Source: an uncultured Acholeplasma sp.
Lineage (GTDB): Bacteria; Bacillota_I; Bacilli_A; Acholeplasmatales; Acholeplasmataceae
Assembly: GCA_964600775.1 (NCBI GenBank)
Contig: CAZRKJ010000010.1
Location: 1 to 21,160, forward strand
DNA length: 21,160 nucleotides
Reading direction: 5' to 3'
Shown: one piece after another, positions 1,864 to 21,160 of the stretch
How the letters are laid out: each line of letters opens with the position of its first letter
Position numbering within the stretch: the stretch's first letter is position 1
The notes under the pieces: model-generated
What the model was told of the DNA's origin: nothing
Seen by the model: the letters and a program-made list of their open reading frames with translations, nothing else
The model's database searches: none
Position numbers and translations under genes: made by a program

Positions 1864-4800
1864 TTAAACCAATGCTATTTGAACTTTCAATGTCGGTACG
1901 AAACCTTCACTAATTGTCCATATTTGAGTATCAAATGATGCATAAGTTGCTGCACTTACAAACGCTGCTGGACTTATAAAGTATGTGCCATCATCTAAAA
2001 CTGCACCAAAGGATCTAAAGTTCGTTGTACCAATCGTATCTATATTTGCATAGACATCAACAACAGTACCAAAGTTTGTTGCTAGTAATCCAACCGCTGT
2101 TGGACCATTATCTGATACAGCTTTACCTAATACAATAATATTTTGTAAAACGCCGTGATTGTGTAGTACTAATGCAGCACCATTTGCACCATAAACATAT
2201 ACTTCAATGTCAACGACGACATCTTGTATTGTACCTGCATTATGTGCAACTAATCCAGCAGACCATGCATTGGCTTCCACATATCCTTCAAAGTGTGTAT
2301 TTTTAACGACACCATCAGCACCAACAAAACCAAAGAATGCCTTTGTCCAACCACCATTTGGCATGTTAATACCAGAAATCATAAAACCTTGACCATCAAA
2401 GATGCCAGTAAATGCAACACCTGCAATACCTTCATCTTCATTAGGAGCAATACCTATAGCCACCCAGTTTTGTGTTAGTTCTATATTTGCTGTAAGCATA
2501 TAAGTCTTGCTTAGCATTTCAGGATCAACTTGTCCTGAAAGATATGTTAATAGTTCTGTTTCATTAGAAATGTATACTGTATCACCTAAAACTGGTTCCT
2601 CAGATGATTCATTTATAAGTACTGGAACCATACCCTCAACGATTAACCATATAGCATCATCAAACGCTGCATAAGTAGCTGCTGCTAAAAAGCTTGCATT
2701 TGAAATAATATATGTACCATCATCTAAAACTGCACCAAGGGATTTAAAGTTTGGTGTACCAACTGTATCTGCGTTTGCATATACTTCAACAACAGTACCA
2801 AAGTTTGTTGCTACTAAGCCGTTTGCACCTGAATCAGATGCAACAGAACCTAAAACTACTATGTTTTGTAAAATACCGTGATTATGTACTGCAATTGCAC
2901 CACCATTACCACCATATACATAAACATCAATTTCAACGATAACATCTTGAATGGTACCTGCATTGTGTGCAACTAATCCAGCAGACCATGCATTACCTTC
3001 TACATATCCTTCAAAATGTGTATTCTTAACAACACCATCAGCACCAACAAAACCAAAGAATGCTTTTGTCCAACCACCATTTGGCATGTTAATACCAGAT
3101 ATTTTATAGCCTTGTCCATCAAAGATACCAGTAAATGCAACACCTGCAATACCTTCATCTTCATTAGGTGCAATACCTATAGCAACCCATGGTGATGTTA
3201 ATACGATATCACTTGTTAATACAAATGTTTTACTTAAATTTTCAGGATTTGTTTGACCTGACAATAAATTAACTAATTCAGTTTCATTTGAAATATATAC
3301 AGTATCATCAACGATTTCAGGGTTATAAACTGCACTAAATGTTTTTTCTGTAGATACTTCAGTACCTTCAATAGATACAACTACAGTAAATGAAAAACTT
3401 GCAGAAACTAATTCTAAATCAAAAGTTACTAAACCTGTTTGATCAATTGAAACACCATTGACTGCATCCTTAAGCGCATAGACTAATAACTCTTCACCTA
3501 AAGGATTAAGAATCGTTGTATCCACTTGTAGTGATTCATCAATTTCTAAGTCTAATGCTACGATTGTATTATCAATTGAAATACCTAACTCTGGAACAAT
3601 CACTGGCGGTACAAAACCTTCATATTTTAACATTGGTGCAATACCATCAGTAACATACCAAATATCTGTATCAAAGGCTGCATAGGTTGCAGCTAAGATA
3701 AAGTTTTGAGCAGAGATGATGTATGAACCATCATCAACGACAGTTCCAAAGGATGCTAGATTTGCTGTGCCTACTGTATCTGCATTCGCAAATACATTTT
3801 CAAGTGTACCAAAGTTTGTTGCAACTAAACCAACAGCAGTTGGACCGCTATCAGATGCAACGCGTCCTAAGACAACGATATTTTTTAATAGACCATGGTT
3901 ATGTACAACAATTGCACCACCATTCGCTCCATAAACATATACAACCATCTCAACAACAACATCTTGAATGGTACCTGCATTATGCGCAGCAATCGCACCA
4001 GACCATGCATTCGCTTCTACATAACCTTCAAAGTGAGTATTTTTAACAACTGCATCTGCGCCAATAAACCCAAAGAATGCTTTTGTCCAACCACCACCTG
4101 GCATATCAATACCAGAGATTGTATAGCCTTGTCCATCAAAGATGCCTGTAAATGGAACACCTACAATACCATCATCTTCATTTGGTGCTAAACCAATTGC
4201 AGTCCAAGGTGTTTCTAAAACAATATCATTTGTTAAGACAAATGTCTTACTTAAGTTTTCAGGATTCATTTGTCCTGAAAGTAAGTTTAATAATTGTGCT
4301 GCTGTAGAAATATATACAGTATCATCAACGATTTCAGGATTATAAACACCTGTAAATGCACGTTCTGCAGTAATTTCTGTACCTTCAATTGTGACTACAA
4401 CTGTAAATGAGAAACTAGATGCGACAAGTTCTGGATCAAATGTAACTAAACCAGATGCATCAATACTTACCCCTGCAACTGGTGCTTTAAGTGCATACTC
4501 TAATACTTCACCACCACTAGGGTTAACAACTTCAGCATTAATTTGAAGTGTTTCAGACACTTCTACATCAACTTCTAATACCGTGTTTCTAATTGCTACA
4601 GCACGCTCTAAAACGATTACAGGTGGCTCAAAACCATCATGTTTTAATAACGGATATGTACCATCTGCAATATACCAACGATCTTGATCAAATGCAGACC
4701 AAGTAGATGCTGATTTCATATCTACTGTTGGTAGCATGTAATTTGGATTAGTCGTAGGAACAAATGCTGCATAGTTTGGTGTTTCAAGTGTTTGATAATC

Positions 4801-5712
4801 TCCATAAACTTCAACCATAGAACCATCATTGGCAACAACTAAACCAGCTGAACGTCCGGATGTATTTGGATTGGTTTCACTAACAACTTTACCAATACCA
4901 TAAGCATATTGGATTAAACCTCTATTGACAGATACAATAGATCCTGCAGAAGTTCCTGCAACAGTTACAACCATATTTGAAACAACATTTTCAATTAAAC
5001 CTTCATTAATACCTGCAATACCACCAGACCATCCGGTTGCATTTACAACACCTTCAAAAGCCGTGTTTCTAACAATGGCTGTAGGTCCGATTTGTGCAAA
5101 GAATCCACCATTAAATAATGGTTCTTCACTTGAAATATCAATACCGCTAATTGTAAAACCATTACCATCAAATATACCAGTAAATGGATCACCAGCAATA
5201 ATATCACCAGTGTCTAGTTCAACTTCAGCAACACCAATTGGTGTCCATGGTGCAGTTAACTCAATATGATTCATTAAGATATATGAACCAGCTAATCCAC
5301 CTTCTGCTGTATTGATCGCACGTAGTTGTGCTTCTGTTGTAATCTCAACAGCTTCTACACCTACATTTTCAACTGTAAAGACAATTGTTTGACGAATTGT
5401 TGGATCATATACAGATGTTGCTACAACTGTAAATGTTGTACCATCTTCAACCGCATTACCAATGTTTAATTTATCATCAGTAATTGATACGCCACTGACA
5501 ATGCCTTGAACTGTAAATCGAATCTGTTGATTTGAACCTTCAGGTAATGCAACTGCAACTAATGTATGCTCACCTGGGGTCAATGTTGTTGAATCCATTT
5601 GAAATTGAATAGATTCAACATCTGGCACGTTTGGTTGTTCTTCTTCACTTGGGGTACATGCTACTAAGACAAGTGATAAAAGAAGTACCATAATCGTAAT
5701 AATCTTTTTCAT
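1864..5712 (-). CDS. Very large surface lipoprotein (1282 aa). Domain order: N-terminal Big_2-like Ig domain, then four tandem GLUG-motif beta-solenoid-like modules (A to D), with extra Ig-like domains after modules A and B.
   Basis: The ORF starts MKKIITIMVLLLSLVLVAC|TPSEEE (lipobox LVAC). A putative RBS reads AGAGGGTAAAGT-ATG. Modules begin at aa ~119, 465, 804 and 1045. Each contains FTGIFDG[QN]G[YF]xISGI...GG(W)TKAFFGF[VI]GAD..V.NTHFEG.V......G...HNAGTI.DV.V...V...G.NGGA...HNHG.L.N..VLG. The N-terminal module reads W-S-G-G-I-A-G-I-N-E-G-L-I-E-N-V, which resembles the GLUG (PF07581) consensus. Ig-like segments: ESIQFQMDSTTLTPGEHTLVAVALPEGSNQQIRFTVQG; and VSETLQINAEVVNPSGGEVLEYALKAPVAGVSIDASGLVTF. 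Confidence 0.85.
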   Translation of the reverse strand: MKKIITIMVLLLSLVLVACTPSEEEQPNVPDVESIQFQMDSTTLTPGEHTLVAVALPEGSNQQIRFTVQGIVSGVSITDDKLNIGNAVEDGTTFTVVATSVYDPTIRQTIVFTVENVGVEAVEITTEAQLRAINTAEGGLAGSYILMNHIELTAPWTPIGVAEVELDTGDIIAGDPFTGIFDGNGFTISGIDISSEEPLFNGGFFAQIGPTAIVRNTAFEGVVNATGWSGGIAGINEGLIENVVSNMVVTVAGTSAGSIVSVNRGLIQYAYGIGKVVSETNPNTSGRSAGLVVANDGSMVEVYGDYQTLETPNYAAFVPTTNPNYMLPTVDMKSASTWSAFDQDRWYIADGTYPLLKHDGFEPPVIVLERAVAIRNTVLEVDVEVSETLQINAEVVNPSGGEVLEYALKAPVAGVSIDASGLVTFDPELVASSFSFTVVVTIEGTEITAERAFTGVYNPEIVDDTVYISTAAQLLNLLSGQMNPENLSKTFVLTNDIVLETPWTAIGLAPNEDDGIVGVPFTGIFDGQGYTISGIDMPGGGWTKAFFGFIGADAVVKNTHFEGYVEANAWSGAIAAHNAGTIQDVVVEMVVYVYGANGGAIVVHNHGLLKNIVVLGRVASDSGPTAVGLVATNFGTLENVFANADTVGTANLASFGTVVDDGSYIISAQNFILAATYAAFDTDIWYVTDGIAPMLKYEGFVPPVIVPELGISIDNTIVALDLEIDESLQVDTTILNPLGEELLVYALKDAVNGVSIDQTGLVTFDLELVSASFSFTVVVSIEGTEVSTEKTFSAVYNPEIVDDTVYISNETELVNLLSGQTNPENLSKTFVLTSDIVLTSPWVAIGIAPNEDEGIAGVAFTGIFDGQGYKISGINMPNGGWTKAFFGFVGADGVVKNTHFEGYVEGNAWSAGLVAHNAGTIQDVIVEIDVYVYGGNGGAIAVHNHGILQNIVVLGSVASDSGANGLVATNFGTVVEVYANADTVGTPNFKSLGAVLDDGTYIISNASFLAAATYAAFDDAIWLIVEGMVPVLINESSEEPVLGDTVYISNETELLTYLSGQVDPEMLSKTYMLTANIELTQNWVAIGIAPNEDEGIAGVAFTGIFDGQGFMISGINMPNGGWTKAFFGFVGADGVVKNTHFEGYVEANAWSAGLVAHNAGTIQDVVVDIEVYVYGANGAALVLHNHGVLQNIIVLGKAVSDNGPTAVGLLATNFGTVVDVYANIDTIGTTNFRSFGAVLDDGTYFISPAAFVSAATYASFDTQIWTISEGFVPTLKVQIALV
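1867..5358. repeat. Four intragenic tandem direct repeats. Unit D is about 1867..2580, C about 2581..3303, B about 3304..4320, A about 4321..5358. B, C and D are roughly 85 to 92% identical at the DNA level over stretches of a few hundred bp. Unit A is more diverged.
   Basis: I aligned by eye. Compare 2279..2470 with 2999..3190 and with 4019..4210. One example is gtccaaccaccatttggcatgttaataccaga, a 32-nt exact match between units C and D. Other long near-identical runs end in ...ccttgtccatcaaagat.ccagtaaatgcaacacctgcaataccttcatcttcattagg... Confidence 0.8.
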
Positions 5713-5757: not shown

Positions 5758-6627
5758 TTAACCTTTTAATCCACCTGCTACCATGTTTTCCATAATTGTA
5801 TTTCTAAATGCAATAAATACTGCAAGAATCGGTACAATTGAAATAATCATTGTAGCAAACATTTCGGCATAAGCCCCTTGAGAAACCATCGTTTGTGTTA
5901 GGTACCTAATACCTAATGCAAGCGTTGGATAATTCCTTAAATAAATTGATGGTGTGATGTAATCATTCCATATACCAATACCATAAATAATTGCTAAAGA
6001 TATCATGATCGGTTTAGCCATCGGTAGCATGATCTTTAAGAATACTTGAAAATCTGATGCACCATCAACAAATGCAGCTTCTGCATAGGTTGGTGAAATG
6101 TTTTTAAAATACCCATGCATAATAAAGAATGTAAAGCCAAATGATCCTGAATACAATACTAAGATACCTAAAATAGAATTATATAAACCTAGCGATTGCA
6201 TTAATCTAAACTGCGCTGGTAACGTACCAACAATCGGCATTATTAATGTGAATAATGCAATACTATATATCAGATTACGTCCTTTAAAACGGTATCTAGC
6301 TATAACATATGCTGCCATTGATGAAAGCATTGTATTAATGAATGTTGCAAGTAATGTAATGACCACACTTAATAAAAACATATGTGTAATATTAAATGTA
6401 CCTGCTGCTGTTTGCATGTTATAACCTAAAACATTCATGTAATTTCTAAAACCAAAGGACTGTGGTAATGCCCAAATATTTGTAAAGAACTCTTGATTGG
6501 ATTTAAAGGAGTTCACAAGCATCCATGCAAACGGAAATAATAATGTAAATGCATAAATAGAAAATGCGCCAAATATGATCCACAATATTACTCTTGCAGG
6601 TGTTGAATAAAAGCGATGTGTCCTCAT
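5758..6627 (-). CDS. Carbohydrate ABC transporter permease (CUT1 family, MalG-like)
   Basis: 289-aa polytopic membrane protein. The EAA-like region is ...YAEAAFVDGASDFQVFLKIMLPMAKP... The ATG start overlaps the upstream permease stop in a TAATG-type junction at 6627. Confidence 0.85.
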   Translation of the reverse strand: MRTHRFYSTPARVILWIIFGAFSIYAFTLLFPFAWMLVNSFKSNQEFFTNIWALPQSFGFRNYMNVLGYNMQTAAGTFNITHMFLLSVVITLLATFINTMLSSMAAYVIARYRFKGRNLIYSIALFTLIMPIVGTLPAQFRLMQSLGLYNSILGILVLYSGSFGFTFFIMHGYFKNISPTYAEAAFVDGASDFQVFLKIMLPMAKPIMISLAIIYGIGIWNDYITPSIYLRNYPTLALGIRYLTQTMVSQGAYAEMFATMIISIVPILAVFIAFRNTIMENMVAGGLKG

Positions 6628-7571
6628 TAGTATTCAACCTCCGTAAAGAATAGATTCAGTGTCCTTCTCGTTAACAATATAATTGGTAACCCAAATATGG
6701 ATAATATAATACCAAATGTTGCCATATAGGCGATATTTTGATTTTGAATAACTGAGTTATATATAGCAAGAGCAATCGTATTGGTATCACCACTTGTTGG
6801 CGTTAAAAATAGTGGTTGTAAGAGCGCTGTAAATACCGATGTCATACCTAGAATAAAGGTTGTGACAATTGTTGGCCAAATAAGCGGAATAACAACTGTA
6901 GTAAACTCTTTAAAGAAGCCAATGCCTTCTAATTGTCCATATTCCATCAATTCTTCTGGAATACGGGTAATTGCACCTGTCATTAAGATAATGTTGAACC
7001 CTAAACCTACCCAAACACCGTAGACAAAGATCATTATTTGGTTGGTTGGGTAGCTACCAAACCATGATGGTACAATAACTGTTGAATCAAACATACCAAA
7101 GAACCACTTATAAATATCGTTTACTGGACCTAAATTAGAGTCAAATGTAAATGAGAATGCCATCGTCATAACTACTATTGGTAAAATCGATGGTAAGAAG
7201 TATACAACTCTAAAGAATCCAGAAAATGGTACTTTTTTAAATAAGAAATAAGAAAATGCCATTGATAAAGGTAATATAACTAAACTATTAATCGGCATGT
7301 AAAAAAGTGAATTAATAATTGTTCTTCTGGTCCACTCATCATTAGCGATTCTATCAAAGAACATTACATAATTATCAAACCCGCTATAGATGTATCGACC
7401 TTCAGTCCATGAAAACTTTTGAAAAGTTAAAACAATCGTATCGAAGTTGACATACCCAAAAAACAGTGCAAACTGAAGTACGGGGTATGCCAACATTAGT
7501 GTAATAAATATACGTTGTTTAGTTTTTTTCTTAAGTATTCTTTTTTTCTTTACTTCGATACTCTTTTCCAC
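6627..7571 (-). CDS. Carbohydrate ABC transporter permease (CUT1 family, MalF-like)
   Basis: Polytopic membrane protein. The region ...MEYGQLEGIGFFKEFTTVVIPLIWPT... matches the permease signature region. The ORF-track start at 7601 is a TTG that overlaps the solute-binding-protein gene by 25 nt and has no SD. An in-frame GTG at 7571 (..IDVEK..) lies just after that gene's stop and has a weak AGGT SD, so I prefer it. The start is uncertain by about 30 nt. Confidence 0.75.
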   Translation of the reverse strand: MEKSIEVKKKRILKKKTKQRIFITLMLAYPVLQFALFFGYVNFDTIVLTFQKFSWTEGRYIYSGFDNYVMFFDRIANDEWTRRTIINSLFYMPINSLVILPLSMAFSYFLFKKVPFSGFFRVVYFLPSILPIVVMTMAFSFTFDSNLGPVNDIYKWFFGMFDSTVIVPSWFGSYPTNQIMIFVYGVWVGLGFNIILMTGAITRIPEELMEYGQLEGIGFFKEFTTVVIPLIWPTIVTTFILGMTSVFTALLQPLFLTPTSGDTNTIALAIYNSVIQNQNIAYMATFGIILSIFGLPIILLTRRTLNLFFTEVEY

Positions 7572-7576
7572 ATCTA

Positions 7577-9022
7577 TTAACCTGCTATTTCTGATTGCCA
7601 AGTAGCCCAGTTTGATTGAATATGTTGATAACTACTTACAAATATACCACGTACATCATAGGTATTATCAACCAACCAAGCTTCTGGGTTTATTAGGTAA
7701 TCACGTGTATTGTAATGATTAAATAATGTTGCATAATATTGAAGATTTTGTGGTGGCCATTCTAGCCCAACTTTACCTTCAAGGATCATTAATGAGTTAC
7801 TATATAAGTTAAATTTTTGACTATTTCTGTTAATTTCAAGAATTGATTTAGAAAATTCTGAAAGATTTTCCTCATCAAGTTCTACTGTGTCATAGTTCAT
7901 TGCAAGTAGTACACCATTGGTTTTTTCTGTAAATGTTGCAATACTTGAATCTTTTGCTAAGAATAATAAGAATTGTTTTGCTAATTCTTTATTCGGTGCA
8001 CGTTTTGGAATAATGATTGAATCTCCTGCACCTACTGTATAGTTCACACGAATTGGATTGCCTTCTGTATCGGTTTTAGCATTCGCCATAAATGGTGCTG
8101 GCATCATACGCATTTCCATAATTTCAGGGTTAATATTAGCAATCATTTCACTTTCAAGCCACTGTGCATTAGGAATCATTGCAGCATAACCATTTAAAAA
8201 GTCCATTTGAGCAGCCATATATTGTTTACCAACCGAATCCTCCACAGAGTGTAATGGCTTTTTAGCAATCAAATTTGTCCACGCTTCTAAAGCTTGATAA
8301 TGACCTGGGTGTAGATCTGGGTTAAATACATCCGTTGAACCAAGTGCAGTGTATGTTTCAAAGAAGCCTGTTCCATTTATTTGAGCCCACCAGTCAAAAA
8401 CTAAGTAATCCCAGTAATAAGTTTCTTGACTCCATACAAAGGGTTTAATAGTTGCTGCATTGGGTTTCATATCATTTGGATCAACTTTAATGTTTGCATT
8501 ATAAATTGTATCCGCTAAAGTTACCAATTCTTCATAAGTTTCAGGAACTTCCCATCCGTTATCTCTAAACATTTTTGCATTATATACTATACCACCAACT
8601 CCATTAGTCCATGGTAACTTATAATATGTATCGTTAAATGATGCTGTTTCTAATAAACTTTGATCAATTTTATCTATTAGTTTAATACCATTTTCTACTT
8701 CTTGCTGCATTAAATCATTTAGCGGTTCAATGTGTCCTTGAACAGCTAAAAATTCCCAGTTAATACCATGGGAGAAGAATATATCATCAGGTGAACCATT
8801 TTGTAATCTATTTGGAATATCTGATGCCAAATCAGGATTTGCTTCGATTGTAACCGTAACACCTGGATTTTCGGCTTCAAATTGTCTGGCAAGTGTATTA
8901 ATCCAAACTTGCCCATACCCGCCTAAATATACAGATATTTTTAAACTATTTGGGTCATTTGTAGTACATGAAGCAAGTACAAATGCACCAAATGCTAATA
9001 ATGTGAGAAATATTTTTTTCAT
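7577..9022 (-). CDS. Extracellular solute-binding lipoprotein of a carbohydrate ABC transporter (family 1 SBP)
   Basis: The likely true start is ATG at 9022. A GAGGTGA SD lies 5 nt upstream. The product begins MKKIFLTLLAFGAFVLASC|TTNDP (lipobox LASC). The ORF-track start at 9031 is an upstream in-frame GTG. The size (~480 aa) and W/Y-rich sequence are typical of sugar SBPs. Confidence 0.8.
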   Translation of the reverse strand: MKKIFLTLLAFGAFVLASCTTNDPNSLKISVYLGGYGQVWINTLARQFEAENPGVTVTIEANPDLASDIPNRLQNGSPDDIFFSHGINWEFLAVQGHIEPLNDLMQQEVENGIKLIDKIDQSLLETASFNDTYYKLPWTNGVGGIVYNAKMFRDNGWEVPETYEELVTLADTIYNANIKVDPNDMKPNAATIKPFVWSQETYYWDYLVFDWWAQINGTGFFETYTALGSTDVFNPDLHPGHYQALEAWTNLIAKKPLHSVEDSVGKQYMAAQMDFLNGYAAMIPNAQWLESEMIANINPEIMEMRMMPAPFMANAKTDTEGNPIRVNYTVGAGDSIIIPKRAPNKELAKQFLLFLAKDSSIATFTEKTNGVLLAMNYDTVELDEENLSEFSKSILEINRNSQKFNLYSNSLMILEGKVGLEWPPQNLQYYATLFNHYNTRDYLINPEAWLVDNTYDVRGIFVSSYQHIQSNWATWQSEIAG

Positions 9023-9059
9023 AACTTTCACCTCTTATAAGTTAATTTAGTTTACTTTA

Positions 9060-9355: not shown

Positions 9356-10789
9356 TTACTTACTTGATTTTGGTTTTAAATCTTCTTTTGGTTCACTTGA
9401 CTTCTTAGTTAATTTACCAGATGCATAACCTGCTAAGAGTGAGGTTAGATCAATACCTGTTGCCTCTTGAACTGAGGATAGTATTTGTGTCGATGAGTTT
9501 ACGATATCTCCAACCAATTTGGTTGAATTGCCATCACCGTACATTGTGATCTTATCTACTTGTGATAATGGTTGAGCAGCTGCACCTACAATTTTTGGTA
9601 AAACTTCAGAATCTAATATAAGTTCTAAGACTGCTGCTTCTTCCATTAATTTCATTGCTAATGCTTTTTTCTCAATAGCTTCTGCTTCTGCAAGACCAAC
9701 GGCTTGTATACCTTTAGCGCGTTCTTCTTCAGCAAAACGTTGTGCCTCAGCAGCCACCTTAATTGCTTCTGCCTTTTTAGCTTCTTCAATATATTTAGCT
9801 TCTGCATCTTTAGAACGTGTAAATAGATCGGCTTGGGCTTTTTGTTCTGCCGCATAACGTTTTGCATCTGCATCTTTTCTAACAACAGCATCCAAACGTT
9901 TTTCTTCAACTTCAATTTCTTTTTGTTTTAATTCAATTTCTTTTGAGCGTTTTGCAATCTCTGCCTCTTGGATTGCAATATTAACACTCTTAGATTCGTT
10001 TGCACTTTGAATTTGGTATGCTGCATCAGCAACAGCCTTTTGTGTATCTGACTTTTGTTTTAAGGATGCTTGACGTAGTTCTAAATCCGTATTTTGTTCT
10101 GCAATTTTTAATTCAGCAGTAATTCTTGCAAGGTTGGCAGACTCTTTAGCTATAGCTGTTGCAATCTCTACATCTTTTTCAGAGTTTGCACGTGCAATTG
10201 AGGCATCTTTTCTAATTTGAGTGACATTATCAACCCCAAGGTCCTCGATTACACCGTTTTTATCACTAAAGTTTTGAATCGTAATGTTAATAATCTCTAA
10301 GCCCATGCGATTCATATCTTTCATTGCAGAGTTATAGACTTGTTCAGCAAACTTTTCTCTATTCTGTACAAGTTCTTTTAACTTCATTTGACCAATGATT
10401 TCACGCATGTTACCTTCAAGTATTTCTTTTGTAACTACACGAATACCTTCTAAGTCACGTGACAGTAATATTTGTCCAGCTAGACGAATAGAATCTTCAT
10501 CTGTCATAATACGTATATTTGCAACCCCATCTACAAATATATTAATAAACTCATTTGTTGGTACCGCAGAATCTGTTTTAATATCTGTTTGAATTAAAGA
10601 CAGCGGTATCGTATCGATTCTTTCTAAGAATGGGATACGTAATGTACCTTTACCAATAATGACCCTAGATTTTCTAGGACCTGTAATAATGAATGCTTGG
10701 TCTGGTTTTACCTTTACATAGGATGCAGCAAAAAGTGCAATCAATAAGACTGCAATAATACCAACAACCAGCATAATCTGCTCTATCAT
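9356..10789 (-). CDS. Flotillin-like SPFH/band-7 domain protein (FloT/YuaG-like)
   Basis: 477 aa. It has an N-terminal TM helix (MIEQIMLVVGIIAVLLIALFAASY) and an SPFH domain. A long Ala/Glu/Lys-rich coiled-coil flotillin region follows (...EAEIAKRSKEIELKQKEIEVEEKRLDAVVRKDADAKRYAAEQKAQ...). There is a good SD (AAGAGG). No NfeD-like partner gene is adjacent. Confidence 0.8.
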   Translation of the reverse strand: MIEQIMLVVGIIAVLLIALFAASYVKVKPDQAFIITGPRKSRVIIGKGTLRIPFLERIDTIPLSLIQTDIKTDSAVPTNEFINIFVDGVANIRIMTDEDSIRLAGQILLSRDLEGIRVVTKEILEGNMREIIGQMKLKELVQNREKFAEQVYNSAMKDMNRMGLEIINITIQNFSDKNGVIEDLGVDNVTQIRKDASIARANSEKDVEIATAIAKESANLARITAELKIAEQNTDLELRQASLKQKSDTQKAVADAAYQIQSANESKSVNIAIQEAEIAKRSKEIELKQKEIEVEEKRLDAVVRKDADAKRYAAEQKAQADLFTRSKDAEAKYIEEAKKAEAIKVAAEAQRFAEEERAKGIQAVGLAEAEAIEKKALAMKLMEEAAVLELILDSEVLPKIVGAAAQPLSQVDKITMYGDGNSTKLVGDIVNSSTQILSSVQEATGIDLTSLLAGYASGKLTKKSSEPKEDLKPKSSK

Positions 10790-11517: not shown

Positions 11518-12795
11518 TTAAAGTTCAAAACTTGGTGTTTTATCCATTTTTAAATCATTATCTACAAAATCATAGAATAAATCGAAGTTTTCAATATTAG
11601 AAAAATTGATGAAATCATATTTTGCTAAATCAGCACTATCTTGGTGGATATTTGCCATCACACTTTCAATATAGTCTATTGTAATCTCTGGATGATTAAA
11701 GTCCATATCATAATGATTTAAATTTAGATGTGCTTGGGTTAGGTTTTCTTTGGCCAAATCAATTGTAACTCCTACATTTGCAAACCCATAATCTAAATTT
11801 AAATCGACATTAAACTGTCTATAGTCATGGTTTGTAAATAACATATAGTTATCTACATATACACCTTCATTTCGGTGTGCATTACTATCTAAATATGCAT
11901 GGTCCCACCCGGATGCTTCAAGCAACTGGAACCTTAAGGCAATCATACCATCACCTGAGTCAGAATACGAAAAGATAGATGTCTTATCATTAAATAGTTC
12001 AAAGTGTCTTGTTGATTCATAACCATCACCAACAACCGCACTGATATTGGTTTCAGGGTTATACCAAGATATGACACGTCCATCTGGTCCATAGTTATTT
12101 GGTGTATAGGATATGTCAAAATGTTCATTGTTTACCTGACTAACATATTGATAACGGTATTGCGCGTTATCACTATATGTAACTGTAATCATATTACTAT
12201 CTTCTAAAAATTCAAAATAAGTAAAATTCTTATCTACTTCATAAACCTTTAACTCTTTTAAGTAGAATAAATCATCCTTATAACCCATTTTTATACCGTA
12301 TTGCACTTCGGTATCATTAAATATACCTTGTGCAGTGTATCTAAGGGTTATACCACCGTCTTTAGATAAATAAACAAATGCTTCTATTTGTAGTATACCT
12401 TGAAAGGTAATATAAACATTGGCAGAAATTGCTTCATCATCAATAGCTTCCATTTGTAGTAAAACTTCATCTAACTTATCTTTATAGTGTGTTAAATACT
12501 CACTTAAGACAACATCATTGGTGTTGTTACGCATGTTATCATATACTGTTTGATATGCTGATCTTGGCAGCATATCATCAGGGTTATATGGTGTATTATT
12601 ATAAAACCTTGTAGGTATGGCCTCATCATTGGTACTTGGTACTTCAAGGACGGATGTTAACTTACTATGATAGGTTGTTACACCTTCTTTAAGGGTTTTA
12701 GGTAACTCAATTGTTGGTGCATTATTTGTAGGCGTACATGCTAACAACATAAAACTTATGATTAACATCATTGTTATGACAATTGTTTTTTTCAT
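11518..12795 (-). CDS. Hypothetical lipoprotein (425 aa), no recognisable domain
   Basis: Starts MKKTIVITMMLIISFMLLAC|TPTNN (lipobox LLAC). The composition is Y/N/D-rich. It is the last gene of the minus-strand cluster and is followed by the palindromic terminator. Confidence 0.7.
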   Translation of the reverse strand: MKKTIVITMMLIISFMLLACTPTNNAPTIELPKTLKEGVTTYHSKLTSVLEVPSTNDEAIPTRFYNNTPYNPDDMLPRSAYQTVYDNMRNNTNDVVLSEYLTHYKDKLDEVLLQMEAIDDEAISANVYITFQGILQIEAFVYLSKDGGITLRYTAQGIFNDTEVQYGIKMGYKDDLFYLKELKVYEVDKNFTYFEFLEDSNMITVTYSDNAQYRYQYVSQVNNEHFDISYTPNNYGPDGRVISWYNPETNISAVVGDGYESTRHFELFNDKTSIFSYSDSGDGMIALRFQLLEASGWDHAYLDSNAHRNEGVYVDNYMLFTNHDYRQFNVDLNLDYGFANVGVTIDLAKENLTQAHLNLNHYDMDFNHPEITIDYIESVMANIHQDSADLAKYDFINFSNIENFDLFYDFVDNDLKMDKTPSFEL

Positions 12796-13934: not shown

Positions 13935-15076
13935 CTAGATACCTAGATAATCATAAACGTTTTTAACAGTATCAATTTCACTATCATTTGAAACTGATTT
14001 TAATCGCATTTTTGTGTTCTTGATTTTAAAAAGTTGTTTAAATATTCTAACAAACCATGCCCATGGTAATAACCATGCATGTTTCTTTAAATATGGATAG
14101 GCTTCTAATAAACGTTTGCGACTAGGAAAAACTTCACCTAAAAAATATCTAAACCTAGACTTTTTTAGTCTTGTTTGTTCAAATGTTCTTTTGGTAATAT
14201 ATGGATCATGTTTTGTACCTGAACCGTGAATACCACTTTGCATAATGTAAGCCATAATGTCAAAATCTTCTCTATTTGGCTCAACTTGATTTAGAAATAT
14301 TTTGTTTAGATGCATAACTTTTTGATTAAAGACATCTAGTTTATATGTCTTTAAGTAGCCATCTAAGATATCTTTATCCATGATGTCATCATAATGATTA
14401 TAATACACCCACATATCTAATAAACTTCTAATACCTACACCAGAGGTCCTTATATGGCGTATTAAATGTGTTAACAAATAGACATACTCAAATTCTGGTT
14501 TTAGTTTATGTGTAAAGCCAAAATCTAAATAGACATTTTCCCATAACTGACTTAGGAGTACTTCATTTTCATATTCATTACTTGATGTAATACTTTGATG
14601 TAGCTCAATATAATTACCATCTATAGTTTCAAAGACATGATGGTGTGATGTTGCTGATTTAAATGTATACCCTGCATCTATTAGATTTTTTTTGCTTTAT
14701 CAAAATCTAATTTAGGTACAACACAGTCAATATCACCCATACCCCGCATATAAGTTTCTGGATATAATTGTTTTAAGTGTGAACCCTTTAAAAATACATG
14801 CTTTATTTCATGCTGATTAAAAAGTTTTTTTATGTCTTCAATAATTGCTTGTTGCTGGATATCTTTAGATACAAAAGAACCAAATGCTTGCGTAAGCATT
14901 TGATAATATTTTTGCATTTTAAAAGTAGACTGATTAATTGACTGATATACCAATCCGACTAAACCATTTTCAAATATAATTTTTGTTAGTGAAAGTTCAT
15001 CTAAGGTTTCGAATTGAAACCTTTCTTGCTTAAAACTTTTTTCTATCAATTGAAATAAAATCAGATTATTATTCAA
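13935..15076 (-). pseudogene. Nucleotidyltransferase-family protein (PF14907 / NTP_transf_5-like) split by a frameshift. The N-terminal ORF is 14681..15076 and the C-terminal ORF is 13935..14477. A +1A change (or -2A) in the A8 tract fuses them into a single ~383-aa ORF.
   Basis: The N-terminal part carries the Pol-beta-fold motif HVFLKGSHLKQLYPETYMRGMGDIDCVV. I checked the frames by hand. The upstream frame ends ...FDKAKKI*. The downstream frame is open from the codon right after a TAA at 14697..14699. It reads SKKNLIDAGYTFKSATSHHHVFETIDGNYIELHQ...LTHLIRHIRTSGVGIRSLLDMWVYYNH... into the second ORF. With 9 A's the junction would read ..DKAKKNLIDAG.. Confidence 0.7.
14686..14693 (-). repeat. 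Homopolymeric tract, A8 on the coding strand (T8 on plus), at the frameshift site of the nucleotidyltransferase gene
   Basis: Direct read of gattttttttgc at 14684..14695. Confidence 0.9.
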
Positions 15077-16974: not shown

Positions 16975-17310
16975 AAAATCTCCCCTTTTAATGTCGCAAA
17001 ATAAATGATTTATAAATCAATGATTTTGTTTGTATATATTTTTATGTCTACATAAATAAAAATATACGAATATATACAAAGTATAACATAATAATGTATT
17101 TTAAGCACGCACGAAAATGCTTGTTGTAATTCTTTTTGGTATAAAACCGTTTTACTACTTCATCCATCTATTTTTGTATATTCTAAAACCAAGGTATTTT
17201 TTAGTATGCTTATTACATATATATAATATATATACTTTGTAAGGTATTTTAATATTATTTTGTATACTTTAATAATGAATTGCTTTAAAAGCCTTATAAA
17301 TCCCTTATAA

Positions 17311-17345
17311 ATAGAAAAAAGCACCTGCATTTTAGCTGCAAGTGC
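17311..17345 (-). terminator. Rho-independent terminator of the pfkA-pyk operon
   Basis: On the minus strand the hairpin GCACTTGCA-gctaaaa-TGCAGGTGC (GCAC/GTGC and TGCA/TGCA stems with one mismatch) is followed by TTTTTTCTATTTAT. It lies 20 nt after the pyk stop. Confidence 0.6.
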
Positions 17346-17364
17346 TTTATGATAATCTAATCAA

Positions 17365-18717
17365 TTATTTAATTTCTAATAGTTTTGTAGAACTCTTAGT
17401 TAATTCTAATACGAAGTCGCCAGTTTCTAAACCTAATTTTTCAAGGAAATCAGCAGCTTCTTCTTTGCTTAACACAGGGTAAACACCAAAGTGAATTGCT
17501 AGTGCTCTAGCTTCTTTAGCATTTTTTACAACAGCAACATTAATTGCTTCTGAATGGAAACTTGCAAATGATTTAGCAACTTCAATACCGTTTGTTATAA
17601 CAACATCTACTTCATACTCTAATACAAGTTTAGCTGCAGATTGTGCAATCGCATCGATATTAGATTCACCCATAAAGTAACCGTCTAAAAAGACTTCATA
17701 ATCTAACGTAGATTCTGCCTTTTTATTAATTGTAGCCATTTTCTTAACTGATTCTAATGGGTAATCACCAGCTGCTGATTCACCACTTAACATCGTTGCA
17801 GATGTACCTTCTCTAACAGCGTTAAAGACATCTGATACTTCAGCACGTGTAGGGCGTGGATTTTTTTGCATAGACTCTAGCATTTGAGTTGCAACAATAA
17901 CAACTTTTCCTAATTCTAAACATTTATCAATCATTTCAGATTGATACATTGGTACAAGTTCACCTTCTACCTCAATACCTAAGTCACCACGAGCAACCAT
18001 GATACCATCAACAACATCTAATATAGCATCTAAATTGTCCATACCTTCTTGGTTTTCAATCTTAGCAATAATTTGGACACTCTTACCACCATTAGCATCT
18101 AAAATATCACGTACGGCTTGTGCATCATCACCACGTCTTACAAAACTTGCAGCAACAAAATCATAACCCATTTGAGCAGCAAATTTAATATCATTTGCAT
18201 CTTTTTCAGAAATAAAAGGCATATTTAATACAACACCTGGTACATTTACACCACGTCTTGATTTTACAACATGTGTATTTAAAGCTTTAGTTACTAATTC
18301 TCTAGCTACTGGATCTTTTTCAACAACTTCTAAGGTTAAATAACCATCATCAACTGTTACAAATTCTCCGATTTTCATATCATCGTATAGACCATCATAA
18401 GATACAGAGAATTTCTCTTTATTTCCTAATACTGGTGTAAAAGCAATACGCACTGTAGATCCTTTTTGGATTTCTACTTTACCATCAAATTCATGTGTAC
18501 GAATTTCTGGTCCTTTTGTATCAAGGAGGTATGCAACATGTGTGCCTAACTCTTCATTGATTGCTTGGATAGTTTTTAAACGATTACCGTGTTCTTCGTA
18601 ATCTCCGTGTGAAAAGTTAAAGCGTGCAACGTTCATTCCAGCTTTAACAAGTTCTGTCATAACTGCTTTATTTTCTGAAGCAGGTCCTAATGTACAAACA
18701 ATTTTTGTTTTTCTCAT
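17365..18717 (-). CDS. pyk: Pyruvate kinase
   Basis: 450 aa. Starts MRKTKIVCTLGPASE...ARFNFSHGDYEEHG... It includes ...MVARGDLGIEV... and ...VATQMLESM... The classic pfkA-pyk gene order is present. Confidence 0.9.
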   Translation of the reverse strand: MRKTKIVCTLGPASENKAVMTELVKAGMNVARFNFSHGDYEEHGNRLKTIQAINEELGTHVAYLLDTKGPEIRTHEFDGKVEIQKGSTVRIAFTPVLGNKEKFSVSYDGLYDDMKIGEFVTVDDGYLTLEVVEKDPVARELVTKALNTHVVKSRRGVNVPGVVLNMPFISEKDANDIKFAAQMGYDFVAASFVRRGDDAQAVRDILDANGGKSVQIIAKIENQEGMDNLDAILDVVDGIMVARGDLGIEVEGELVPMYQSEMIDKCLELGKVVIVATQMLESMQKNPRPTRAEVSDVFNAVREGTSATMLSGESAAGDYPLESVKKMATINKKAESTLDYEVFLDGYFMGESNIDAIAQSAAKLVLEYEVDVVITNGIEVAKSFASFHSEAINVAVVKNAKEARALAIHFGVYPVLSKEEAADFLEKLGLETGDFVLELTKSSTKLLEIK

Positions 18718-18757
18718 ATTTTATATAATATACCCTTTCATTTCTATTTTTATATAA

Positions 18758-19708
18758 TTATCTTAATTTTTTAATTAAATCGTATAACTCAACGCGTTCT
18801 TTTGGATGGTTAATAATATCTTTTAATGGTGATATCACTAACTTATCATCTTTAATCCCTACACAGTGTCCACTGACACCTTTCATAATCGATTCAACTG
18901 CAAATGCACCCATACGTGATGCAAGTATTCTATCTTCAGCAATTGGCGTACCACCACGTTGGATATAACCTAATACGGTTGCTCGTGATGTAAACCCTGA
19001 TTTAATAGAAATTTCAGCAGCAAGTTTATGGACATCAAATTGTTGTTCGGTTACAACAATAATTGCATGTCGTCTACCTTCTTCATTATGTTTTCTTAAA
19101 GTAGAAATTAATTTATCTTTATTAATTGGGTTTTCCGGTGTAATAATAAACTCTGCACCACCACAAATACCAGCATATAATGCAAGATCTCCAGATGTTC
19201 TACCCATTACTTCTATAATACTACAACGTCTATGAGATGATGATGTATCACGCAGTTTATCGATTGCTTCAACAATAGTATTTAATGCGGTATGAAATCC
19301 GATTGTATAATCTGTTCCGTACACATCATTGTCAATAGTTCCTGGAATTGCAATTGTTTGGAATTCTAGTTCATGTAGTGCTTGTGCACCTCTGTAACTA
19401 CCATCACCACCAATAACAATTAACGCATCAATACCACGATTACGTAAATTGTCGATTGCAACCATTTGAACTGGCACTTCTTTAAACTCAGAAACTCTTG
19501 AAGTTCCTAACTTTGTACCACCAATGCTTAACATTCCTGAAACGTCTTTGGATGTGAGTGGAATAAATCTGTCTTCTAAAAGTCCTCTATAACCATCCAT
19601 AATACCAAACATTTCATGACCCTCTGCAATGCCTGCACGCACAATTGCACGAATTGCTGCGTTCATTCCAGGTGCATCGCCACCAGAAGTTAAAACTGCT
19701 ATTTTCAT
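18758..19708 (-). CDS. pfkA: ATP-dependent 6-phosphofructokinase
   Basis: 316 aa. Starts MKIAVLTSGGDAPGMNAAIRAIVR. It has GGDGS (LIVIGGDGSY) and PGTIDND (IAIPGTIDNDV). The Gly at both E. coli positions 104 and 124 marks an ATP-dependent enzyme. SD is GGAGGTATGACAT-ATG. Confidence 0.9.
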   Translation of the reverse strand: MKIAVLTSGGDAPGMNAAIRAIVRAGIAEGHEMFGIMDGYRGLLEDRFIPLTSKDVSGMLSIGGTKLGTSRVSEFKEVPVQMVAIDNLRNRGIDALIVIGGDGSYRGAQALHELEFQTIAIPGTIDNDVYGTDYTIGFHTALNTIVEAIDKLRDTSSSHRRCSIIEVMGRTSGDLALYAGICGGAEFIITPENPINKDKLISTLRKHNEEGRRHAIIVVTEQQFDVHKLAAEISIKSGFTSRATVLGYIQRGGTPIAEDRILASRMGAFAVESIMKGVSGHCVGIKDDKLVISPLKDIINHPKERVELYDLIKKLR

Positions 19709-19982
19709 ATGTCATACCTCCTTATACGCCGTTTAATATTATATCATGTTTTAGCCAATAAATAATGCTTAAAATATGAATATTTCTTCCAATCATTAAT
19801 TTCTTTTTAAATAAACGTTACCATATGCTTTAATTACTACATTTTGCAATAATTTAATACTTTTGGTTACAAAAATATCAATAAATTCAACATTAAGCAC
19901 AATAGTGTTTGCAATAACGGACATTCTTTGATAAACTTATTAGTGGATTTTTACATATAAAATTTAAAAAGGACGGTATACA

Positions 19983-21160
19983 ATGAAAAAATTAGTTGGT
20001 GCTGCACTCTTAGGTCAATCTGGTGGTCCTACATCAGTGATCAATGCCTCAGCAGCGGGCGTATTTTTAGAGAGTTTAAAGCATGAAGAAATTACAGAGA
20101 TATATGGTGCACAACATGGTATTAAAGGTATCTTAGATGAAAACTTCTATGATATTAGAAAAGAAGATGTTGAAGAGTTAGAAAGATTAAAATATACACC
20201 ATCTTCTGCAATTGGTTCAGTAAGATATAAATTAAAGGATTTTAAAAAAGATCCAACGGACTATAATAAGTTATTAGAAATCTTTAAAAAATATAATATT
20301 CGTTACTTCTTCTACAATGGTGGTAATGACTCAATGGATACATGTTTAAAAATTTCTAAGTTTATGAAAACAGCTGGTTGGGAAATGCGTGTTGTAGGGG
20401 TACCTAAAACAATTGATAACGACTTAGCTGGTATTGACCACTCACCAGGTTATGGTTCTGCTGCAAAATATGTAGCAACCTCAATTATGGAATTATATTT
20501 AGATGGTACAGTTTATAACACACAACAATTTGTTATTGTTGAGGTTATGGGTAGAAATGCAGGTTGGTTAACAGCTGCAGCAAGCCTAGCATCTATTGGT
20601 GGTGTTAAACCAGACTTAATTTACCTACCAGAATTACCATTTGACATGGATAAATTCTACCAACAAGTTGGTGACTTACTAAAAACAGGTAAATCAGTAT
20701 TTGTTGTTGTATCTGAAGGTATTAAAACTGCTGAAGGTAAATACATTCCTGAATATGAAGCAGAAATTGCACGTGATGCGTTTGGTCATGCAAACTTAGG
20801 TGGTACTGCAAGTGTACTTGCAAGCCATGTTGGTCAAAAATTTGGTGTAAAAACACGTGCAATTGAATTCTCATTACTACAAAGATCAGCAGCACACATC
20901 GCATCTCAAACAGATATTAATGAAGCATTTAAAGTTGGTCAATTAGCAGTTAAAAAAGCAATCTCAGGTACAACAAACAAATTTGTCGGTATCCAAAGAG
21001 TACCAGGTGAAACTTATAAAGTTAAGTATCCACTATTACCACTTAAGATTGTTGCGAATGCTGAACGTAAAGTACCAGCAGAATGGATCTTACCTGATGG
21101 TAAAGGTTTAACTCAAGAATTTATCGATTATGCGCTACCTTTAATCCAAGGTGAAACAAA
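19983..21160 (+). CDS. pfp: Pyrophosphate-dependent phosphofructokinase (diphosphate--fructose-6-phosphate 1-phosphotransferase). The N-terminal ~392 aa are present; the 3' end runs beyond the window.
   Basis: ATG at 19983 with an AAAGGA SD 10 nt upstream. The product starts MKKLVGAALLGQSGGPTSVINASAAGVF... It includes ...FFYNGGNDSMDT..., ...VGVPKTIDNDLAGIDHSPGYGSAAKY... and ...VMGRNAGWLTAAASL... GGNDS and PKTIDND put Asp and Lys where ATP-PFKs have Gly104 and Gly124, which is the PPi-PFK signature. It is not in the ORF track because it has no stop. Confidence 0.8.
   Translation, partial: MKKLVGAALLGQSGGPTSVINASAAGVFLESLKHEEITEIYGAQHGIKGILDENFYDIRKEDVEELERLKYTPSSAIGSVRYKLKDFKKDPTDYNKLLEIFKKYNIRYFFYNGGNDSMDTCLKISKFMKTAGWEMRVVGVPKTIDNDLAGIDHSPGYGSAAKYVATSIMELYLDGTVYNTQQFVIVEVMGRNAGWLTAAASLASIGGVKPDLIYLPELPFDMDKFYQQVGDLLKTGKSVFVVVSEGIKTAEGKYIPEYEAEIARDAFGHANLGGTASVLASHVGQKFGVKTRAIEFSLLQRSAAHIASQTDINEAFKVGQLAVKKAISGTTNKFVGIQRVPGETYKVKYPLLPLKIVANAERKVPAEWILPDGKGLTQEFIDYALPLIQGET

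Follow-up and report, generated by a model that had tools for sequence, protein, structure and literature searches.

Why should an uncultured Acholeplasma sp. encode two phosphofructokinases (PFKs) of seemingly different phosphoryl donor types back to back, and does the DNA between their genes act as a common switch? We addressed these questions for the window, that is, the complete 21,160-bp contig CAZRKJ010000010.1 of assembly GCA_964600775.1 (G+C content 32.5%), in which pfkA (18758..19708, minus strand) and pfp (19983..21160, plus strand) point away from each other across a spacer of exactly 274 bp (19709-19982). A sequence-only reading of this DNA had assigned pfkA to the ATP-dependent and pfp to the pyrophosphate (PPi)-dependent type, placed the organism in a PPi-metabolizing lineage, and proposed reciprocal regulation of both genes from a shared control region. 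Its coordinates, strands, spacer length and motif strings were all reproduced when we re-read the sequence and the open reading frames (ORFs). The enzyme types and the Acholeplasma placement also held up, whereas the shared control region and the reciprocal regulation did not. With a probability of roughly 0.8, we interpret the window as carrying an ordinary Acholeplasma glycolytic locus, in which an ATP-type PfkA and a reversible PPi-type Pfp would be expressed from separate promoters and balanced at the level of the enzymes.

Predicted phosphoryl donor types of PfkA and Pfp

The minus-strand gene pfkA starts with ATG and encodes a protein of 316 aa that scores above the NCBIfam cut-offs of PRK03202 (416.1 bits, cut-off 253) and of the equivalog model TIGR02482 (398.3 bits, cut-off 371.35). 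It is 54.7% identical to Escherichia coli PfkA (1pfk, E=8e-108) and 48.3% identical to the enzyme of Geobacillus stearothermophilus. The motifs VIGGDGSYRGA and IPGTIDND contain the published ATP signature of the PFK-A family, GGDGSxxG (PMC11609450), and the alignment places G103, G107 and the Gly before T124 of the window protein at E. coli Gly104, Gly108 and Gly124, in agreement with the initial observation of Gly at both diagnostic positions. Among the catalytic and fructose-6-phosphate (F6P)-binding residues, T125, D127, D129, R162, M169-G-R171, E222, R243 and R252 (E. coli numbering) are kept, and the replacement of H249 by Tyr is the sole departure. The effector site residues R21, R25, R154, E187, K213 and H215 of E. 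coli correspond to R20, R24, R153, E186, R212 and H214 of the window protein, with Arg in place of K213, while R54 is replaced by Ser at a position that varies in the Geobacillus enzyme too. In common with both the E. coli and the G. stearothermophilus enzymes, PfkA has GGDGSxxG, G124, D127, R162, R171, R243, R252, R21, R25, R154 and E187; it differs from them at H249, R54 and K213. Given the ATP signature and the retention of catalytic and effector residues, PfkA looks like a conventional allosteric ATP-PFK. Its assignment to the ATP type, group I of the PFK-A family (TIGR02482/PRK03202), in an operon-like pair with the pyruvate kinase gene pyk, is supported by these comparisons, and ATP would be the donor of this particular enzyme.

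The plus-strand gene pfp belongs to a different part of the family. Its product matched the model NF010675/PRK14072 ('diphosphate--fructose-6-phosphate 1-phosphotransferase') with 532.6 bits (cut-off 273) over profile positions 5-389 of 416, and remained below the cut-off of every other PFK model, including all those for ATP-PFKs. The closest solved structures, 3hno (E=1e-93) and 3k2q (E=1e-89), were both deposited as pyrophosphate-dependent PFKs. Pfp has the motifs YNGGNDSMDT and VPKTIDND. We mapped its residues by a HMMER alignment to the PFK of Bacillus (Geobacillus) stearothermophilus (3pfk) and by a MAFFT alignment that included E. coli PfkA. Together they place N115, D116, T120 and K142 of Pfp at E. 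coli D103, G104, G108 and G124, and both confirm that GGNDS and PKTIDND fall on Gly104 and Gly124, as the sequence-only reading had presumed when it took these motifs as marks of the PPi type. D116 and K142 are invariant in 12 homologues. T120 puts a bulky residue in place of Gly108 in the adenosine cleft; the Pfp of Clostridium thermocellum likewise has Thr at position 108 (PMC10339645), and the roles of D104 and G108 in donor choice have been described (PMC10339645, PMC11609450). Pfp lacks the effector site residues R21, R25, R154, E187 and H215, and the loss of the effector arginines fits the expectation for a non-allosteric PPi enzyme. Since the whole-protein hidden Markov model scores exceed curated cut-offs and the alignments put the motif residues at corresponding positions, the motifs of Pfp and PfkA are not chance matches. 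The classification of pfp as a gene for a PPi-type PFK with Asp104 and Lys124 is therefore supported, and PPi would be the donor of this particular Pfp.

The same Asp and Lys occur at the two determinant positions (Asp175 and Lys201) of the long PPi-PFKs of Entamoeba histolytica and Borrelia burgdorferi. Entamoeba work, as cited in PMC11609450, describes an Asp to Gly mutation that shifts donor preference. These enzymes are distant from Pfp (1kzh, E=6e-11), have about 550 rather than about 414 aa, and carry GGDDS, with Asp at position 103, where the window protein has Asn.

The GGNDS variant and clostridial relatives

The donor motif of Pfp is thus GGNDS and not the canonical GGDDS, with Asn at the equivalent of E. 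coli Asp103, and the signature published for PPi-PFKs is GG(D/E)D(S/T) (PMC11609450). GGNDS was present in all 12 homologues of one Pfp alignment. It also occurs in all of the 80 genome loci that we collected, but these are not independent evidence, since YNGGNDSM was one of the search patterns. Both 3hno and 3k2q carry GGGDS, the variant of Nitrosospira and Marinobacter.

Closer relatives come from clostridia. The C. thermocellum protein P0216 (415 aa, PF00365) is 65% identical to the window Pfp over 394 aligned positions, and a PFK-A protein of Clostridium thermosuccinogenes, P0190, is 63% identical. Both carry YNGGNDSMDT and VPKTIDNDL, and the alignment of P0216 shows D104, K124 and T108. 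From its size, its PF00365 domain and residues that match the description in PMC10339645, we infer that P0216, the one C. thermocellum PFK in this comparison, is Pfp (Cthe_0347); the species has two further annotated PFKs, Cthe_1261 and Cthe_0389 (the latter a second annotated ATP-PFK). On the weaker grounds of species name, size and motifs, P0190 is taken as the characterized C. thermosuccinogenes PPi-PFK. Purified Pfp (Cthe_0347) of C. thermocellum and the purified PPi-PFK of C. thermosuccinogenes use PPi and phosphorylate sedoheptulose-7-phosphate (S7P) as well (PMC7029132, PMC10339645). If these identities are right, the PPi dependence of the window Pfp is strengthened.

The window Pfp resembles both clostridial proteins in belonging to the PRK14072 type, in aligning over the full length, and in having identical motifs including Thr108. 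As a walled, thermophilic clostridium, C. thermocellum differs from the mollicute Acholeplasma. Another difference is that two Ruminiclostridium genomes of its Pfp clade (loci L026 and L064) have no pfkA within 6 kb of pfp; C. thermocellum enters this comparison through the grouping of its protein with these two in the Pfp clade. The presence of GGNDS in P0216 and P0190, and of GGGDS in 3hno and 3k2q, indicates that the published PPi signature is too narrow for the GGNDS clade. The Asn mismatch is accordingly no argument against PPi use, since the same GGNDS is found in proteins taken as PPi-PFKs. In practice, the entire C. thermocellum/Acholeplasma clade escapes GG(D/E)D(S/T), and prediction of the donor by motif should use Asp104 together with Lys124. 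We found no paper in the open literature that pairs GGNDS with phosphofructokinase.

Organization of the locus and source lineage

Downstream of pfkA, after a gap of 40 bp, lies pyk (17365..18717, minus strand; an ORF call of 450 aa), whose product matches TIGR01064 (494 bits) and PF00224 and is 89-90% identical to those of the Acholeplasma laidlawii and Acholeplasma granularum genes in the same position. This order, pfkA followed by pyk, is also that of Bacillus subtilis. A terminator scan of the locus found no terminator-like hairpin between the two genes. Directly past the pyk stop codon there is such a hairpin (17318..17348, minus strand), with a 12-pair stem, a 7-nt loop and a T-rich tail, which is the probable end of a pfkA-pyk transcript. 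Ribosome-binding sites can be read from the sequence 7 nt upstream of the pfkA ATG (AAGGAGGT, 19716..19723, minus strand) and 9 nt before the pfp ATG at 19983 (AAGGA, 19969..19973, plus strand).

The contig end cuts pfp after 392 of about 414 codons. Full-length Pfp homologues have 412-418 aa and the part of the ORF that is present shows no disruption; as the window is the whole contig, we consider pfp to be truncated by the assembly and not a pseudogene. The best match of Pfp is the A. laidlawii protein (95% identity), and PfkA is 96% identical to its counterparts in A. laidlawii and A. granularum, which bears out the attribution of the organism to Acholeplasma. With a nucleotide identity of ~87% and a synonymous divergence (dS) of ~0.6-0.7 relative to these two species, the window represents a sister lineage and neither species itself. 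The ratio of nonsynonymous to synonymous divergence (dN/dS) versus A. laidlawii is ~0.05 for pfkA and pfp alike, and such strong purifying selection indicates that both PFK genes are in use. Pseudogenization of either gene was considered and rejected in view of this dN/dS of 0.05. Tandem duplication as the origin of the PFK pair was also rejected, the two proteins being 25.6% identical and members of different PFK-A groups.

The A. laidlawii chromosome CP126461.2 (L004) and three metagenomic contigs have pyk-pfkA leftward, a 273-bp spacer, and pfp rightward. The A. laidlawii locus agrees with the window in gene order, orientation and the presence of both predicted promoter blocks (see below), and its proteins are 96% (PfkA), 95% (Pfp) and 90% (Pyk) identical. 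It differs in nucleotide sequence (~87% identity, dS ~0.6) and in the central part of the spacer, and only in the window is pfp cut by a contig end. Pollack and Williams 1986, listed as reference 31 in PMC3942410, name the PPi-PFK activity of A. laidlawii in their title, and as far as this title goes it agrees with the statement of the sequence-only reading that a PPi-dependent PFK is classically reported in Acholeplasma. Coexistence of ATP- and PPi-PFKs has been called common (PMC7029132, and likewise PMC8863071), while the supplements of PMC3139596 give PFK at the level of COGs only. In view of the A. laidlawii locus, the reported activity and the common coexistence, the pairing is known biology, familiar from Acholeplasma and ordinary among PPi-glycolytic bacteria, and its value as a discovery is low. 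Its practical relevance lies in annotation, as many annotations read plain '6-phosphofructokinase' and hide the PPi-dependent step in metabolic reconstructions of Acholeplasmataceae.

The spacer and its predicted promoters

We aligned the spacers of five species: the window, A. laidlawii, A. granularum, the metagenome-assembled genome (MAG) UBA4853, and Acholeplasma equifetale. Only two blocks are conserved, each containing one extended -10 element beside one of the genes. The pfkA-side block, ATTATAnCAT, is invariant except for position 19744 and reads ATGATATAAT on the minus strand; it contains the predicted pfkA promoter with the extended -10 element TGaTATAAT (19738..19746, minus strand; hexamer 19738-19743, TG 19745-19746), the variable position being the 'n' of TGnTATAAT. 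This element was found beside pfkA at the same place in 13 of the 13 other divergent loci described below. On the side of pfp, TTTGCA followed by TTTGATAAACT is invariant across the alignment, and the predicted promoter (19909..19937, plus strand) would consist of a -35 element TTGCAA (19909-19914), a 17-nt gap, and the extended -10 element TGaTAAACT (19929-19937). A TGnTA(A/T)AAT-type element is present on this side in most of the 13 other divergent loci, with a TGnTAAAAT-type in distant Acholeplasmataceae.

The middle of the spacer (19750..19905) contains no conserved element in the five-species alignment. Even the three closest genomes (the window, A. laidlawii and A. granularum) differ in these central ~150 bp, and the stretch is missing in UBA4853 and A. 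equifetale, which have spacers of 151-153 bp and keep both promoter blocks. Repeat and catabolite-responsive element (cre) scans, together with comparison of relatives, found no conserved palindrome or robust cre site in the spacer, and a search of the complete window against Rfam yielded no hit and hence no riboswitch or leader match. An 8-mer survey of 14 divergent spacers (the window and 13 related ones) recovered the -10 element alone. The regulator sites that the sequence-only reading had envisaged in 19709..19982 were not found by these computational searches, and the notion of a 274-bp shared control region with reciprocal regulation gave way to one in which only the promoter blocks are conserved and the DNA between them is variable or absent. 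We interpret the spacer as two apparently independent, back-to-back promoters with dispensable DNA between them.

The sequence TTTGCAATAA occurs twice in the window spacer (19843-19852 and 19908-19917, 65 bp apart), and its second copy holds the predicted pfp -35 element. Three copies containing TTGCAA are present in A. laidlawii, and the extra ones are absent from A. granularum. The duplication in the window probably reflects chance or a spare -35-like element. As candidate operators, this repeat and the weak AT-rich inverted repeats were rejected, the extra copy being unconserved in A. granularum.

Cre-like palindromes are located mid-spacer, ~90-112 nt into each spacer, in four related loci: TGAAAACGATTTAG in L008, TGAAATCGTTTTTA in L009, TGAAAACGATTTTA in L010 and TGGAAACGCTTTTA in L038. 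They have 1-2 mismatches to TGNAANCGNTNNCA.

Linkage of pfkA and pfp in other genomes

Our survey covered 80 species-representative loci, those with the highest similarity to the window Pfp, and this sample is biased toward relatives of the query. ATP-type pfkA is divergent from pfp in 13 loci, located directly upstream on the same strand (tandem) in 23, and not found within ~6 kb of pfp in 37; the flank was too short to judge in the remaining 7. Thus pfkA adjoins pfp in 36 of 73 evaluable species-level loci. The divergent loci belong to Acholeplasmataceae, namely A. laidlawii, A. granularum, A. equifetale and 9 further species genomes of this family, plus the locus L038. The tandem loci come from a Christensenellales-like clade; in most of them the gap measures 11-130 bp, often 11-50 bp, an arrangement that looks like a two-PFK operon. 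No description of this tandem form or of recurrent linkage was found in the literature, though no search was aimed at it.

Apart from a few variants, the motifs of the adjacent PfkAs are GGDG(S/T) and P(G/A)(T/S)IDND. According to crude trees (a rough neighbor-joining one for PfkA), the PfkAs of the divergent type group with E. coli PfkA and those of the tandem type form a separate clade. The tandem loci fall together in a single clade of the Pfp tree, and no pfkA adjoins pfp in the clade that includes C. thermocellum.

Several details of these loci can be added. Tandem pfkA genes ending 11-436 bp before pfp were recorded in L015, L018, L022, L023, L032, L034, L035, L039-L041, L043, L047, L051, L053, L056, L057, L060, L062, L066, L068, L069 and L074. 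Donor-site variants of the adjacent PfkAs include GGEGS or GGEGT (L007, L014), GGNGT (L013) and GGGGS (L035), and Ala replaces Gly124 (PATIDND or PASIDND) in L011, L013, L014, L034 and L047. The divergent pair of L019, a Mariniplasma MAG (pfkA 565-1515, pfp 2856-4100), is 1340 bp apart, as opposed to 100-275 bp elsewhere, with an insertion between the genes. No pfkA separates the divergent genes pyk and pfp in L036 (3199-5976) and L045 (4310-7182), where pfkA has seemingly been lost from an Acholeplasma-like pyk-pfkA/pfp cluster or was never inserted.

Proposed function

According to the interpretation that we favor, pfkA-pyk would be transcribed leftward and pfp rightward, each from its own promoter. 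Pfp, which shares the PRK14072 type with C. thermocellum Pfp, would act as a reversible PPi:fructose-6-phosphate 1-phosphotransferase that is not under allosteric control and in which Asp116 may fill the pocket of the ATP alpha-phosphate, Thr120 may close off the ribose and adenine cleft, and Lys142 may steady the PPi transition state. PPi-PFK is physiologically reversible and ATP-PFK is not (PMC7029132). Pfp would most likely be the main carrier of flux between F6P and fructose-1,6-bisphosphate (FBP) in both directions. Mollicutes lack a known transaldolase, and the A. laidlawii annotation contains no fructose-1,6-bisphosphatase (FBPase), yet S7P was detected (PMC3942410); clostridia without transaldolase use Pfp and aldolase through sedoheptulose-1,7-bisphosphate (PMC7029132). 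Pfp could similarly stand in for the FBPase absent from the A. laidlawii annotation and, together with aldolase, bypass the missing transaldolase through the same bisphosphate. Glycolysis, the FBP-to-F6P step and the pentose-phosphate bypass are by analogy the most likely roles of Pfp.

PfkA would act as an irreversible allosteric ATP-PFK, and its gene would share a transcript with that of pyruvate kinase, as in other Bacillota. Phosphoenolpyruvate (PEP) and PPi inhibit the PfkA of C. thermocellum (PMC10339645), which suggests that the enzymes themselves decide between the two routes. In the window, too, the balance would more likely depend on the effects of PEP, ADP or PPi on PfkA and on PPi availability for Pfp than on an operator in the spacer. 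We infer both the function of the promoters and this division of labor between PfkA and Pfp.

Several observations weigh against such an ordinary, separately expressed pair. The pfp coding sequence is incomplete in the window (392 codons, then the contig end), and the protein departs from the published signature GG(D/E)D(S/T) by Asn at the third position. A scan of 17200-20100 for consensus -35/-10 elements gave no pair in the spacer, so that both promoters are predictions based on the extended -10 elements and their conservation. A weak cre-like site with 2 mismatches and without TG is located in the middle of the window spacer (19810-19823), and no cre-like site was found in the A. laidlawii or A. 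granularum spacers. The palindromes of L008, L009, L010 and L038 could represent a CcpA-type site for both promoters in those lineages; these better sites make shared catabolite control possible in parts of the family. Finally, the absence of transaldolase and FBPase is taken from the A. laidlawii paper, and the present genome is known from 21 kb.

Alternative explanations

The spacer might be a bidirectional control region after all, in which one regulator switches PfkA versus Pfp reciprocally. Although the divergent genes have a common spacer and the arrangement is kept in 13 species-level loci, the middle of the spacer is unconserved in the three closest genomes and deleted in two relatives that retain the promoter blocks. 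The mid-spacer palindromes of the four relatives have a 2-mismatch counterpart in the window, but the latter is without TG and absent in A. laidlawii and A. granularum; likewise, TTTGCAATAA is found twice in the window spacer, but its second copy is unconserved in A. granularum. A lone activator site between divergent promoters would, moreover, co-regulate the genes and not reciprocate. In 23 other species the genes are in tandem, mostly with gaps of 11-130 bp, which implies co-transcription and co-expression and argues against reciprocity as a general principle. Such a switch is therefore improbable. The adjacency itself invites a further proposal, equally doubtful in our view, that pfkA-pfp linkage arose more than once and was selected as a coupled module of two enzymes. 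Multiple origins are possible because the adjacent PfkAs of the divergent and tandem forms fall into two separate clades. Such a module could possibly serve as a PPi-sensing switch, with PPi inhibiting PfkA, or as an F6P/FBP cycle driven by ATP (ATP + Pi -> ADP + PPi), which would replenish the PPi used by PPi-dependent enzymes. The source of PPi in PPi-dependent glycolysis is an unsolved question (PMC8863071), on which the cycle, if true, would bear. For work on the balance and the PPi supply of PPi-dependent glycolysis, the repeated side-by-side occurrence of both PFK types in two Bacillota lineages offers an inexpensive lead.

The remaining alternatives concern the enzymes of the ordinary locus. 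PfkA may not be a significant glycolytic PFK: it could mainly use another substrate or donor (for instance GTP, or the phosphates of sedoheptulose or tagatose), or be close to silent while Pfp handles the entire flux. ATP-PFK activity in extracts of PPi-glycolytic organisms is often undetectable or 6- to 11-fold lower (PMC8863071), an alternative function of the ATP enzyme has been suggested (PMC7029132), and C. thermocellum PfkA takes both ATP and GTP (PMC10339645). The dN/dS of 0.05, the perfect extended -10 element, the strong ribosome-binding site and the operon partner pyk speak against a silent gene. The replacement of H249 by Tyr would suit a changed specificity, but the protein is 54.7% identical to E. 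coli PfkA, passes the TIGR02482 equivalog cut-off, and has the other listed F6P-binding, catalytic and effector residues intact. We regard a minor role of PfkA as unlikely. Even more remote is an ATP-dependent plus-strand enzyme with a group II sequence, comparable to the trypanosome ATP-PFKs and the small Entamoeba enzyme. The donor has changed repeatedly during the evolution of PFK-A (PMC11609450) and GGNDS departs from the PPi consensus, but Asp104, Lys124 and Thr108 all exclude ATP (PMC10339645), the C. thermocellum protein taken as PPi-dependent Pfp is 65% identical with identical motifs, and PPi-dependent activity is known, from the title cited as reference 31 of PMC3942410, in A. laidlawii, whose protein is 95% identical. 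We hold ATP dependence of Pfp to be highly improbable.

Other genes of the contig

Elsewhere in the window, a gene of the NTP_transf_5 family (an uncharacterized nucleotidyltransferase; 13938-15067, minus strand), which is one 379-aa ORF in A. laidlawii, is split between two frames. Residues 3-130 are encoded in frame -1 and residues 93-379 in frame -3, with ORFs at 14681-15076 and 13935-14477, and the split reflects either a frameshift pseudogene or an assembly error. An ORF of 425 aa (11518-12795, minus strand) had no Pfam match, and its neighbor (9356-10789) encodes an SPFH/Band 7 protein. Another ORF, of 1282 aa (1864-5712, minus strand), gave no Pfam match at E<=1e-5. It is located directly downstream of an ABC sugar-uptake gene set, composed of SBP_bac_1 (7577-9031) and two BPD_transp_1 permeases (5758-7601), and adjoins a gene for a ROK-family protein (610-1779); it may encode an uncharacterized glycan-processing or surface protein.

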